A stretch of DNA of 64,000 nucleotides from the sequence record ON229909.1; one strand, written 5' to 3'. The first letter of the stretch is position 1; every line of letters begins with the position of its first letter. The notes beneath the pieces are model-generated. The model made no database searches. It was not told where the DNA came from and saw nothing but the letters and a program-made list of their open reading frames with translations. This document shows positions 26,392 to 38,007 of this stretch, piece after piece. The position numbers and the translations under genes were made by a program. The stretch comes from Escherichia phage vB_EcoM_CE1.

Positions 26392-26464
26392 TGGGAATTA
26401 GCCAAGTTGGTAAGGCATAGCACTTTGACTGCTAGATGCAAAGGTTCGAGTCCTTTATTCCCAG
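26392..26464 (+). tRNA. tRNA-Gln (anticodon UUG)
   Basis: Hand-folded cloverleaf; acceptor tgggaat/attccca; anticodon loop ctTTGac; T-arm GGTTCGAGTCC. Confidence 0.8.
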
Positions 26465-26465
26465 C

Positions 26466-26552
26466 GCGAGAATGGTCAAATTGGTAAAGGCACAGCACTT
26501 AAAATGCTGCGGAATGATTTCCTTGTGGGTTCGAGTCCCACTTCTCGTACCA
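26466..26552 (+). tRNA. tRNA-Leu (anticodon UAA), long variable arm, encoded CCA
   Basis: Acceptor gcgagaa/ttctcgt; anticodon loop ctTAAaa; 1-nt spacer after tRNA-Gln (dimeric precursor as in T4). Confidence 0.8.
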
Positions 26553-26558
26553 AAGTTT

Positions 26559-26630
<72 letters not shown>

Positions 26631-26642
26631 AAATTTAATTTA

Positions 26643-26716
26643 CTCCGTGTAGCTCAGTTTGGTAGAGCGTCTGCTTTGGGAGCAGAATGTCGCAGGTTCA
26701 AATCCTGCCGCGGAGA
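26643..26716 (+). tRNA. tRNA-Pro (anticodon UGG)
   Basis: Acceptor ctccgtg/cgcggag; anticodon loop ttTGGga; T-arm GGTTCAAATCC. Confidence 0.75.
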
Positions 26717-26718
26717 CT

Positions 26719-26805
26719 GGAGGCGTGGCAGAGTGGTTTAATGCACCGGTCTTGAAAACCGGCAGTCGCTCCGGCGATTCATAGGTTCAAATCCTATCGC
26801 CTCCG
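26719..26805 (+). tRNA. tRNA-Ser (anticodon UGA), long variable arm
   Basis: Acceptor ggaggcg/cgcctcc; anticodon loop ctTGAaa. Confidence 0.75.
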
Positions 26806-26812
26806 TAATTTC

Positions 26813-26885
26813 GCTGATTTAGCTCAGTAGGTAGAGCACCTCACTTGTAATGAGGACGTCGGCGGTTCGATTCCGTCAATCAGCA
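26813..26885 (+). tRNA. tRNA-Thr (anticodon UGU)
   Basis: Acceptor gctgatt/aatcagc; anticodon loop ctTGTaa. Confidence 0.75.
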
Positions 26886-26891
26886 TATCAA

Positions 26892-26963
26892 GGCCCTGTA
26901 GCTGGAAGGTTCAAGCAAGCGACTCATAATCGCCAGATGGTGGTTCAATTCCACCCAGGGCCA
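26892..26963 (+). tRNA. tRNA-Ile (anticodon CAU, lysidine-type; Met not excluded)
   Basis: Acceptor ggccctg/cagggcc; anticodon loop ctCATaa; T4 cluster order puts Ile here. Confidence 0.65.
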
Positions 26964-27004
26964 TATTTTGAGAACATAAATACTCTTAGAAATAGGAGAT
27001 ATTT

Positions 27005-27670
27005 ATGTTCCATTACATTTATAAAATAACAAATAAAATTAATAATAAAATTTATATTGGTGTGCATTCTACCGAAAATTTAGATGATGGATATATGGGT
27101 TCTGGTAAATTATTAAAAAGAGCCCAAGATAAGTATGGTATAGAAAATTTTTCTAAAGAAATATTAGAGTTCTTTGACGATAAAACCTCTATGTTTGAGA
27201 CAGAAAAGAATATTGTGACTGAAGAGTTTTTAAAGCGCCCTGATGTTTATAATTTGAAATTAGGTGGTGAAGGTGGATGGGACCATTTAAACACTAAAGA
27301 ATATTTGGATAAAAAGAAAGAAGCTTCCTTAAAAGGAGCTGCCGCTTTTAAAACCAGATTTGAGAACGACCCAGACCTTAAAGAAAAATATCGTAAAATG
27401 GGTTCAGAAAGGTTTAAACAGCTTTGGGATAATCCTAAGTATAGAGAGAAATTTTTAAATACTAAATCTTTCTTGGGTAAGACCCATACTCCTGAAACTA
27501 TTAATAAAATGAAAGAATCTCACGCCAGAAATAAACACCAACAAAGTGAAAAGAATTCCCAATTTGGCATGATGTGGATTCATTCATTAGATGAAAAAGT
27601 TTCTAAACGTATTAAGAAAACTGACCCAATTCCAGAAGGATGGTTTAAAGGTCGAAAAATGAAATTTTAA
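27005..27670 (+). CDS. segB: GIY-YIG homing endonuclease SegB inside tRNA cluster
   Basis: 221 aa, FHYIYKITN...YIGVHS GIY-YIG motif; located between tRNA-Ile and tRNA-Arg as in T4. Confidence 0.85.
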   Translation: MFHYIYKITNKINNKIYIGVHSTENLDDGYMGSGKLLKRAQDKYGIENFSKEILEFFDDKTSMFETEKNIVTEEFLKRPDVYNLKLGGEGGWDHLNTKEYLDKKKEASLKGAAAFKTRFENDPDLKEKYRKMGSERFKQLWDNPKYREKFLNTKSFLGKTHTPETINKMKESHARNKHQQSEKNSQFGMMWIHSLDEKVSKRIKKTDPIPEGWFKGRKMKF

Positions 27671-27673
27671 TTA

Positions 27674-27750
27674 CGGGGCATAGCTCAATTGTATAGAGCA
27701 ACGGATTTCTAATCCGTTGGTTGAAGGTTAGAATCCTTCTGCCTCGACCA
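27674..27750 (+). tRNA. tRNA-Arg (anticodon UCU), encoded CCA
   Basis: Anticodon loop ttTCTaa; T-arm and acceptor 3' tgcctcg-a-cca; 5' end assignment approximate. Confidence 0.65.
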
Positions 27751-35358: not shown

Positions 35359-35388
35359 GTTTACTTTTCCTCTTGACTGTGGTATAAT
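35359..35388 (+). promoter_or_regulatory. T4-type early promoter (GTTTAC, TTGACT, TGtGGTATAAT)
   Basis: Strong sigma70-like elements 28 nt upstream of regB. Confidence 0.7.
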
Positions 35389-35884: not shown

Positions 35885-36430
35885 ATGAGAAAAGCACTAC
35901 TCGCTGGTCTATTGGCCATTTCAATGATGGCACATAGCTCCGAGCATACTTTCAGTAATGTCCAACTCGATAACATGCGTTACGCGTATCAATTCGGGGA
36001 ACAATTTTCTAAGGATGGAAAATATAAAACACATAAAAATATCCACAAGGGTGGATTAGGTCATATAATGGCTGCTATTTTATGGCAAGAAAGCTCTGCC
36101 GGAGTTAATTTAAAATCTAAACCAAAGCATCACGCTTATGGAATGTTCCAAAATTATTTGCCTACTATGCGAGCGAGAGTTAAGGAACTTGGTTATAATA
36201 TGACCGATGCTGAAATAAAAAGAATGTTGAATAAACGGTCCAATTCAGCTTCCTGGGCGTACATTGAACTTTCTTATTGGTTAAATATACATAAGGGCGA
36301 TATAAGAAAGGCAATATCCTCTTATAATTCGGGATGGAATGTTAAAGCAGGTTCTAAATATGCTTCTGAAGTCCTAGAAAAGGCTAATTACCTTAAAAAT
36401 AATAAACTTTTGGAAATAGTAAATGACTAA
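35885..36430 (+). CDS. secreted lytic transglycosylase-like protein (SLT domain)
   Basis: Signal peptide; SLT-like motifs WQESSAG and AYGMFQ. Confidence 0.65.
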   Translation: MRKALLAGLLAISMMAHSSEHTFSNVQLDNMRYAYQFGEQFSKDGKYKTHKNIHKGGLGHIMAAILWQESSAGVNLKSKPKHHAYGMFQNYLPTMRARVKELGYNMTDAEIKRMLNKRSNSASWAYIELSYWLNIHKGDIRKAISSYNSGWNVKAGSKYASEVLEKANYLKNNKLLEIVND

Positions 36431-36770
36431 AATTTTGGTTTTATGTATAGGATTAATTTCATTTTCTGCTTCTGCGTTAGCAAATACATCATATACTGAA
36501 ATTAGAGAGTATGTAAATCGCACTGCGGCAGATTATTGTGGGAAAAATAAAGCATGCCAAGCTGAATTTGCGCAGAAATTAATATATGCATATAAAGACG
36601 GAGAAAGAGATAAATCAAGCAGATACAAAAACGATACATTATTAAAACGATATGCTAAAAAGTGGAATACCTTAGAATGTTCAGTTGCGGAGGAGAAAGA
36701 TAAAGCCGCTTGTCATTCAATGGTTGACCGTTTGGTAGATTCTTATAATCGAGGATTGAGTACTAGATGA
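36423..36770 (+). CDS. vs: valyl-tRNA synthetase modifier
   Basis: 115 aa with signal peptide, matches remembered T4 Vs. Confidence 0.8.
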   Translation: MTKILVLCIGLISFSASALANTSYTEIREYVNRTAADYCGKNKACQAEFAQKLIYAYKDGERDKSSRYKNDTLLKRYAKKWNTLECSVAEEKDKAACHSMVDRLVDSYNRGLSTR

Positions 36771-37234
36771 TTGTAAAATATATCAAGGGCGATATTGTCG
36801 CCCTTTTCGCTGAAGGTAAAAATATTGCGCATGGATGCAATTGTTTTCATACTATGGGTTCAGGCGTAGCGGGTCAATTAACCAAAGCTTTCCCTAAAAT
36901 TTTGGAAGCTGATAAATTACAGACTGAATGGGGTGATGTAACTAAACTTGGTTCTTACTCAGTCTATGAAAAATACTTTAGGACTCATAAAGCGTATTGC
37001 TTCAACCTTTATACTCAATTTCAACCAGGGCCAAATTTTGAGTATTCCGCTTTAATGAATTGTATGTTAGAATTAAATGAGTTTGGTGAAAATAAACTGA
37101 TTAAACCTACAATCTATATGCCTAGGATTGGTGCAGGCATAGGTAAAGGGAACTGGGATATTATTGAGGGGATTTTAGATACATATTCCTCTAAATTAGA
37201 AATTGTGATTGTTGATTGGGAACCGTTATTATGA
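36767..37234 (+). CDS. macrodomain protein (ADP-ribose binding/processing)
   Basis: Macro motifs HGCNCFHTMGSGVAGQL and RIGAGIGKGNW. Confidence 0.7.
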   Translation: MIVKYIKGDIVALFAEGKNIAHGCNCFHTMGSGVAGQLTKAFPKILEADKLQTEWGDVTKLGSYSVYEKYFRTHKAYCFNLYTQFQPGPNFEYSALMNCMLELNEFGENKLIKPTIYMPRIGAGIGKGNWDIIEGILDTYSSKLEIVIVDWEPLL

Positions 37235-37443
37235 ATATACATTATCCACATCCGTATGACCCAAAGAATAAGGCAGTAATTATTCGTCAATGGGAACGCA
37301 TTTGCCGTACTAAATGTCCAATTAATAGTCCGCATGATGTAGATAAAGACTACATTGGAACATTCGTTGAATATACCTTTATTGATAAGAAAGGTCGTAA
37401 ACAGCATGTAGAAGAATACTGCTTAAAGGTTACATGGTTATGA
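37231..37443 (+). CDS. hypothetical protein
   Basis: ORF track 37216..37443; ATGA overlap start at 37231. Confidence 0.45.
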   Translation: MNIHYPHPYDPKNKAVIIRQWERICRTKCPINSPHDVDKDYIGTFVEYTFIDKKGRKQHVEEYCLKVTWL

Positions 37444-37646
37444 GCCAAACTAGTATTCTTAAAAATGCCCATTGTGAAAAGTGTAAATGGCCAGTTGTTT
37501 TTGCTTTATGCAACGATGAAATGGCTTGTGATTTCGATTATTGGTGCTATTGTTCTAATAAAGGATGCATCAATCATAAAGGTGAAGGATTTTATTCGGG
37601 ATTTTATCCTTATCCAGATTTCGTTAAAGAAGGTAAACCGAAATGA
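37434..37646 (+). CDS. hypothetical Cys-rich protein
   Basis: 70 aa with multiple CxxC. Confidence 0.45.
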   Translation: MVMSQTSILKNAHCEKCKWPVVFALCNDEMACDFDYWCYCSNKGCINHKGEGFYSGFYPYPDFVKEGKPK

Positions 37647-37815
37647 ATAGTTCTGAGTTACAGTATGAAGTGTTACGTGAGCTTGATAATTTAATTGAAC
37701 TCGCTGTCAATAAAGGTTTTGCCATTGGAATCGGTCAAAAAGATACTGGTCATTTAACTATGGAAATATTTAAGCAAAAGCGAATTATTTTAAAACTCCT
37801 GGAAATTAATATATG
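37643..37815 (+). CDS. hypothetical small protein
   Basis: 57 aa ORF (below track threshold) filling gap, ATGA overlaps both sides. Confidence 0.4.
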
Positions 37816-37998
37816 AGTCTGAGTAAAGAACAAAAAGATAAATTGTTTGAGCTTATCCATGAACTTCTAGATGAGCATACAGAAGCAAACACCTTTTATG
37901 ATGAATACGGCCCGCTATCTCCCGAACAGCAGGAAGAATTTGCTGATCGGTTTGATAAGAAAGAAAACGAATTAATAGCTTATGTGAATACGCTTTAA
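37813..37998 (+). CDS. hypothetical protein
   Basis: 61 aa acidic ORF. Confidence 0.45.
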   Translation: MSLSKEQKDKLFELIHELLDEHTEANTFYDEYGPLSPEQQEEFADRFDKKENELIAYVNTL

Positions 37999-38007
37999 GA
38001 AGGTGAT

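Follow-up and report, generated by a model that had tools for sequence, protein, structure and literature searches.

A lysine-less Asn/Gln-type macrodomain encoded by tk.4 (adfM) of Escherichia phage vB_EcoM_CE1, a likely eraser of DarT2-made ADP-ribosylation

In a 64,000-nucleotide stretch of Escherichia phage vB_EcoM_CE1 (ON229909.1; 'the window' below is this whole stretch), we identified a 155-aa ORF whose product is identical to Tk.4 of phage T4 and is a macrodomain with an active site of the lysine-less Asn/Gln type. We consider it likely that Tk.4 hydrolyses the thymidine-ADP-ribose made by DarT2 on single-stranded DNA, using a lysine-independent site built on Asn25 and Gln84, and thereby restores T4 replication. 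The macrodomain assignment and the anti-DarTG2 function of tk.4 were already on record; the present analysis adds the Gln-type active site, a likely origin other than DarG, and a name collision with AdfM of phage PhiKZ.

The ORF, which begins with ATG, is the tk.4 (adfM) coding sequence, and its coordinates, stop codon included, are given in Table 1 with those of the neighbouring signals. The first-pass annotation had described it as a 155-aa ORF with macrodomain signatures, and both strings on which that reading was based, HGCNCFHTMGSGVAGQL (residues 22–38) and RIGAGIGKGNW (residues 120–130), are present in the translation. The protein is 100% identical (155/155 aa) to T4 Tk.4, which is 'ORF 60.5' of record X04567; in the T4 RefSeq record (NC_000866) the gene tk.4 (T4p110, NP_049723.1) lies between vs and tk.3. 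The surroundings are alike in the two phages, with regB, vs.1 and vs on the 5' side, tk.3 on the 3' side, and the same start/stop overlaps. All genes around tk.4 are densely packed on one strand (+), and, in line with the GAGGA motif, X04567 carries a ribosome_binding_site annotation beneath the match.

Table 1. Coordinates in the window of the tk.4 coding sequence, adjacent signals and active-site codons
Feature	Position	Strand	Basis or remark
Best sigma-70-like promoter match, TTTACT-17-TATAAT with extended TG (candidate)	35360..35388	+	Upstream of regB
GAGGA Shine-Dalgarno-like motif	36751..36755	+	11 nt 5' of tk.4 ATG; read in sequence
tk.4 / adfM CDS	36767..37234	+	155 aa macrodomain protein
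ATGA overlap, tk.4 start / vs stop	36767..36770	+	vs = 36423..36770
H22-G23-C24-N25-C26 codons	36830..36844	+	Sequence read and alignments
N80-L81-Y82-T83-Q84 codons	37004..37018	+	Profile-to-TARG1 and MAFFT alignments
P119-R-I-G122-A-G124-I-G126-K-G-N-W130 codons, glycine-rich phosphate-binding loop	37121..37156	+	Alignments
ATGA overlap, tk.4 stop / tk.3 ATG	37231..37234	+	tk.3 = 37231..37443; T4 gene order

At the nucleotide level, the region is 99.5% identical to the Tequatrovirus phages PD112 and IME537. In relation to T4, the identity is 97.5% over regB-vs.1-vs-tk.4-tk.3 and again from tk on, the 560 bases between these two parts being unlike T4. Within tk.4 itself, 7 of the 468 bases differ from T4; all seven are third-codon, synonymous changes. 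The phage is thus closely related to T4 without being T4, and the gene is under purifying selection. The other difference from T4 is the replacement of the tk.2/tk.1 segment just downstream. From regB to mobD, alignment with T4 is lost only in this small variable cassette (37445–38007), directly 3' of tk.4/tk.3. Where T4 has tk.2 and tk.1, the window has ORFs at 37434..37646 (70 aa), 37643..37816 (57 aa) and 37813..37998 (61 aa), one of which is annotated in IME537 as a match to RB51 tk.2. Elsewhere in the window, eight tRNA genes (Gln, Leu, Gly, Pro, Ser, Thr, Met/Ile-CAT, Arg) are clustered at 26392–27750 (+), an arrangement that resembles the tRNA cluster found in phages of the T4 type. The gene immediately 5' of tk.4 is vs (valyl-tRNA synthetase modifier); vs and the macrodomain gene are adjacent across many T4-like genera, and in the HIDEN-SEQ preprint no other T4 gene was depleted as strongly as vs in minimal medium (10.1101/2025.11.20.689424). 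We found no evidence for a functional link between the two genes.

Since regB, vs.1, vs, tk.4, tk.3 and tk form a head-to-tail string, tk.4 is probably expressed early in infection. The best sigma-70-like match (Table 1) is, as a consensus match, a possible early promoter of the regB-vs.1-vs-tk.4-tk.3...tk string. The promoter scan gave 14 promoter-like sites against 14.5 expected from shuffled sequence, i.e. no excess, so that the timing of tk.4 is drawn from gene order and knowledge of T4 rather than from the scan. A perfect 8–9-bp GC-rich hairpin, AAGGGCGA-TATTG-TCGCCCTT, at 36785–36805 begins 19 nt inside the tk.4 ORF; TTTT comes next on the + strand, and the scan flagged the site as terminator-like on the minus strand. 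It was set aside, as its folding energy was ordinary (z = −0.82 in an 81-nt context), and it is probably due to chance.

The profile search and structure prediction proposed in the first-pass annotation both returned a macrodomain. The protein scored 27.7 bits with the Pfam family Macro (PF01661), above the gathering cut-off of 22 (E = 2.9e-6; 112 of the 118 profile positions), and matched PHROG 335 with E = 1.3e-65. The single Tk.4 sequence matched the solved macrodomains BT1257, Poa1p, SCO6735, DarG and TARG1, and the matches to solved macrodomains improved to E = 1.6e-17 to 8.5e-11 when a 40-member Tk.4 family profile was used. The AlphaFold2 model made from the family alignment (mean pLDDT 94.9, pTM 0.90) has the three-layer alpha/beta/alpha macro fold. 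When it was compared with the PDB by Foldseek, TARG1, BT1257, Poa1p and DarG came out at the top with a probability of 1.00, human TARG1 (4J5S) being the first match (E = 6.7e-10, TM 0.73–0.81). BT1257, which clusters with SCO6735, was the best structural and sequence neighbour of Tk.4. The glycine-rich loops for the ADP-ribose phosphates, M30-G31-x-G33 and I121-G122-x-G124, show little or no variation among the 40 members of the family, and the solved macrodomains have their corresponding loops at the same alignment positions. Thus, Tk.4 belongs to the ALC1/TARG1-like macrodomains and consists of a single domain, with TARG1, DarG, Poa1p, SCO6735/BT1257 and ALC1 as neighbours.

The suggestion that a phage macrodomain could reverse DarT-type DNA ADP-ribosylation as an anti-defence measure is supported by published genetics. 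In HIDEN-SEQ (bioRxiv, 20 November 2025; 10.1101/2025.11.20.689424), a saturated T4 transposon library was grown on E. coli expressing DarTG2, and tk.4, otherwise dispensable, was the single significant match on this host. T4 became sensitive to DarTG2 when tk.4 was cleanly knocked out, and the authors gave the gene the new name adfM, for anti-DarT factor Macrodomain (10.1101/2025.11.20.689424). These genetics come from one preprint and cover one DarTG2 system in M9 medium at 30 °C (10.1101/2025.11.20.689424). Its authors pointed out the structural similarity to M. tuberculosis DarG and wrote of an enzymatic removal of the DNA-linked ADP-ribose that it 'seems likely' (10.1101/2025.11.20.689424); in our search of the literature, we found no published enzyme assay on Tk.4 itself. 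A further factor had been predicted earlier, as T2 and T4 without adfN, and T4 without both adfA and adfN, were still DarTG2-resistant (PMC11825919).

Phage T5 is strongly DarTG2-sensitive (PMC11825919) and was the sensitive control in both papers. We searched T5 in six frames with profiles of the Tk.4 family and of broader TARG1-like macrodomains and found no Tk.4-like or TARG1-like macrodomain; the best hit was a 61-codon unannotated frame with E = 0.027, whereas the window ORF gave 1.7e-65 in the same search. The absence of a homologue from T5 is consistent, as a single comparison, with an anti-DarTG2 role of Tk.4.

The proposed mechanism is as follows. Tk.4 is probably made early in infection. 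DarT2 of the host DarTG2 system modifies thymidines of single-stranded phage DNA with ADP-ribose; Tk.4, most likely acting as an ADP-ribosyl glycohydrolase, would take the ADP-ribose off thymidine, and T4 DNA replication would then continue. The active site is of the lysine-less Asn/Gln type of SCO6735 and BT1257 and differs from the lysine-dependent sites of DarG and TARG1. This analysis established the fold and class of Tk.4, its conserved residues and its lack of the second DarG domain; the genetic requirement for tk.4 on the DarTG2 host and the biochemical activity of SCO6735 were established by others. Hydrolysis of thymidine-linked ADP-ribose by Tk.4 itself is the predicted step.

To define the active site, we used a profile-to-TARG1 alignment and two MAFFT alignments, with the sequences of DarG (M. 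tuberculosis and T. aquaticus), SCO6735 and BT1257 obtained through PDB searches and that of PhiKZ gp104 taken from PMC13309987. Asn25 corresponds to Asn27 of SCO6735, Asn22 of DarG and Asn23 of PhiKZ AdfM, and His22 to His24 of SCO6735. Gln84 occupies the place of the catalytic lysine of TARG1 (K84) and DarG (K80), and also of PhiKZ AdfM, and is equivalent to Gln85 of SCO6735. Tk.4 has G122 and G124 in the phosphate-binding loop where SCO6735 has G126 and G128, and its own G126 stands at the position of Asp125 of TARG1. Hence, the Lys84/Asp125 dyad of human TARG1/OARD1 (4J5S) is Gln84/Gly126 in Tk.4, and TARG1 also differs in having a serine at the position of the pocket asparagine; it is likewise reported to cleave thymidine-ADPr (PMC8501950).

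The residues of the Asn/Gln site are strictly kept among the relatives. Gln84 was found in 199 of 200 relatives (119 of the 120 metagenomic and phage sequences, the remaining one having a gap, and 80/80 bacterial ones) and lysine in none; Asn25 was likewise present in 199/200, and G122 and G124 are kept in every family member with a residue at those columns. H22, N25, N80, Q84, G122 and G124 are common to Tk.4, SCO6735 and BT1257.

The first-pass annotation had held that its reading would be refuted by a lack of hydrolase or binding activity together with catalytic residues missing on alignment. As regards the lysine type, they are indeed missing, the TARG1/DarG lysine being replaced by Gln84 and the aspartate by Gly126, but the asparagine and glutamine of the SCO6735 type are present. 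SCO6735 has none of the catalytic residues of TARG1 and DarG, and it releases ADP-ribose from the thymidines of DarT-modified ssDNA at a turnover exceeding that of DarG or TARG1 (PMC9411070). Its Q85A and Q85E mutants are dead and N27S is nearly dead; in the proposed mechanism, the glutamine, held by the asparagine, sets the distal ribose in place, and cleavage is initiated by a water molecule bound to the backbone (PMC9411070). SCO6735 also shields S. coelicolor from DarT toxicity and processes protein substrates (PMC9411070). In PhiKZ AdfM, mutation of the pocket asparagine (N23) lowers the activity (PMC13309987). Because the Asn25/Gln84 signature is shared with a proven thymidine-ADPr hydrolase, the missing lysine does not refute activity of Tk.4. 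A side-chain contact between Asn25 and Gln84 is predicted from the alignments.

The likeness to SCO6735 (5E3B) and BT1257 (B. thetaiotaomicron; 2FG1/2AFC) has its limits, as the identities to Tk.4 are about 20% and about 28%, respectively. These two proteins have 'IGQ' where Tk.4 has 'YTQ' and H[VI]CND where Tk.4 has HGCNC, and their loop after the glutamine is 4–6 residues longer than that of Tk.4. In SCO6735, this longer loop is mobile and bears lysine and, like Lys34, has been proposed to help in binding DNA (PMC9411070). Lys34 and Lys89 of SCO6735, implicated in DNA binding (PMC9411070), have no equivalents in Tk.4, K34 aligning with S32. The isoelectric point was uninformative as a proxy for DNA binding, since Tk.4 has a pI of 5.9 and the biochemically active PhiKZ AdfM one of 5.05.

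DarG of M. tuberculosis (5M3I) and T. aquaticus (5M31/5M3E) is a protein of about 340 aa with a C-terminal DarT-binding domain, whereas the 155-aa Tk.4 has no such domain, has Gln84 in place of the catalytic Lys80, and is encoded by a gene with no darT beside it. Tk.4 scored 30.3 bits with the NCBIfam DarG equivalog NF048014, far below the cut-off of 250, and covered only positions 2–146 of its 338; in the PADLOC DarG model, it covered only positions 2–145 of 329. The possibility that Tk.4 is an orphan DarG was thus rejected on the score and on the absence of the C-terminal domain, of the catalytic lysine and of a DarT neighbour.

The family occurs in 2750 phage records, and more than 500 bacterial relatives were obtained when each species was represented by one genome. 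The best 80 of these were 32–43% identical to Tk.4; most were stand-alone ORFs of about 150 aa, and 76/80 had both motifs. When the window and the 6-kb flanks of the 80 bacterial loci were searched by tblastn with P. aeruginosa DarT2, no DarT homologue was found (best E above 2), a search that, with a single DarT2 query, could let very divergent DarT-like genes escape. The DarT family was not among the 25 commonest Pfam families of the 125 flanking ORFs, a list that could miss an isolated DarT neighbour. Examined for a conserved partner, and for DarT in particular, the flanks of the 80 relatives were heterogeneous; among the 125 ORFs, genes related to NAD or ADP-ribose were sparse (NAPRTase 4, ADP-ribosylglycohydrolase 3, NAMPT 2, NAD synthase 2, PRPP-synthetase-associated 2). 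Some of the 'MAG' contigs may be phage, as one (L002) adjoins a T4 Rnl1-type RNA ligase gene and another (L003) is a 167-kb contig. Given the low DarG scores, the stand-alone relatives and the lack of a DarT found nearby, the Tk.4 family looks like a stand-alone eraser borrowed by phages, not an antitoxin torn out of a DarTG operon.

The phenotype of the tk.4 knockout is equally compatible with binding and with catalysis. Tk.4 could mainly bind and block DarT2, in the manner of ICP1 AdfB, for which a direct interaction has been proposed (PMC11481870), or of the non-catalytic part of DarG, with adduct hydrolysis being minor or absent. It also speaks for such a function that the dead Q85A mutant of SCO6735 still inhibits DarT in vitro, and does so more than DarG K80A or TARG1 K84A (PMC9411070). 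However, Tk.4 has no counterpart of the DarG domain that binds DarT, and what is strictly conserved is the ADP-ribose pocket (N25, Q84, G122, G124), across phage and bacterial relatives without DarT nearby. Such a pattern would suit an enzyme directed at a common adduct better than a protein that binds a single, rapidly evolving toxin. We therefore regard blocking as the main function as unlikely and hydrolysis of the adduct as the preferred reading.

The database labels point in another direction. The T4 RefSeq product name of tk.4 is 'phosphatase; Tk.4; contains A1pp phosphatase motif', a formulation that denotes a macrodomain, and many phage records call the gene product 'macro domain protein'. 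The first-pass annotation described an anti-defence role as not classically attributed to this part of T4. That remark is only half right, given the A1pp note long present in T4 RefSeq and the 'macro domain protein' labels, and the 2025 preprint has made it outdated. Other product names in the T4 record (NC_000866, 57500–63500) are odd as well: tk.3 is called 'Tk.2 conserved hypothetical protein', beside 'phosphatase' for tk.4, and the 60-aa mobD.4 is called 'molybdopterin-guanine dinucleotide biosynthesis protein MobD'. Such names have spread into many phage records.

If the phosphatase label were taken literally, Tk.4 would be an ADP-ribose-1''-phosphate (A1pp) phosphatase or a small-molecule ADP-ribose enzyme like yeast Poa1p, and the DarTG2 phenotype would be indirect. 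For the comparison with Poa1p, we used H23, S30 and F152, the residues probed by its mutant structures. Poa1p has in common with Tk.4 the histidine (H22) and the HxCNC motif, and its S30 aligns near T29, but it has a serine at the position of the invariant Gln84. Moreover, the label goes back to what the domain used to be called and has no assay behind it, and tk.4 is needed specifically on the DarTG2 host and is dispensable otherwise. To our knowledge, Appr>p is not a product of T4 RNA repair (Pnk/Rnl). We find it extremely improbable that Tk.4 is such a phosphatase.

It is also conceivable that the main substrate of Tk.4 lies elsewhere, in uracil-linked ADP-ribosylated RNA, in proteins modified by the T4 enzymes Alt, ModA or ModB, or in Thoeris-like ADP-ribose-derived immune signals, the anti-DarTG2 effect being one facet of an eraser of broader activity. 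[quoted passage not shown] By analogy, cleavage of uracil-ADPr in RNA is plausible as an extra activity of Tk.4. The suggestion of a connection with Thoeris gained no support in this analysis. A main substrate other than the DarT2 adduct appears very unlikely to us, and removal of thymidine-linked ADP-ribose remains the preferred function.

A second phage macrodomain countering DarTG2, gp104 of PhiKZ, has been given the same name, AdfM (Cell Rep 2026), and it has the pocket asparagine as well (PMC13309987). Its removal of ADP-ribose from a TNTC oligonucleotide has been demonstrated biochemically (PMC13309987). In contrast to the Gln-type Tk.4, PhiKZ gp104 is of the DarG-like lysine type, with the motif 'FPTKDNW', and BLASTP of gp104 against Tk.4 gave E = 0.027 over 23 residues only. 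Judged by their sequences, the T4 and PhiKZ 'AdfM' proteins are two independent recruitments from unrelated subfamilies under one name.

A wider reading, which we put forward tentatively and consider rather doubtful, is that in Tk.4 the phage carries its own copy of a widespread lysine-less Asn/Gln macrodomain that stands alone and works by a water-mediated mechanism, and not a captured DarG. Tk.4 would erase thymine-ADPr in DNA and probably uracil-ADPr in RNA, and would guard T4 against any ADP-ribosyltransferase toxin that targets thymine or uracil, not only DarT2.

The link between tk.4 and its function dates from 2025, and the present findings bring no new biology at that level. They place T4 AdfM nearer to SCO6735, the stand-alone bacterial 'guardian', than to the DarG antitoxin, and they indicate that a catalytically dead control for T4 AdfM should be Q84A or N25A, not a lysine mutant. 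For annotation, 'phosphatase' is a misleading label carried by hundreds of phage records, and 'AdfM', coined independently by two groups for different subfamilies, is a name by which annotation pipelines may be misled. DarTG stops phages by ADP-ribosylating their DNA, and phage genes that undo this modification explain the resistance of T-even phages and help to predict host range; the contrast between Tk.4 and the PhiKZ protein bears on how often phages have independently recruited ADP-ribose erasers.
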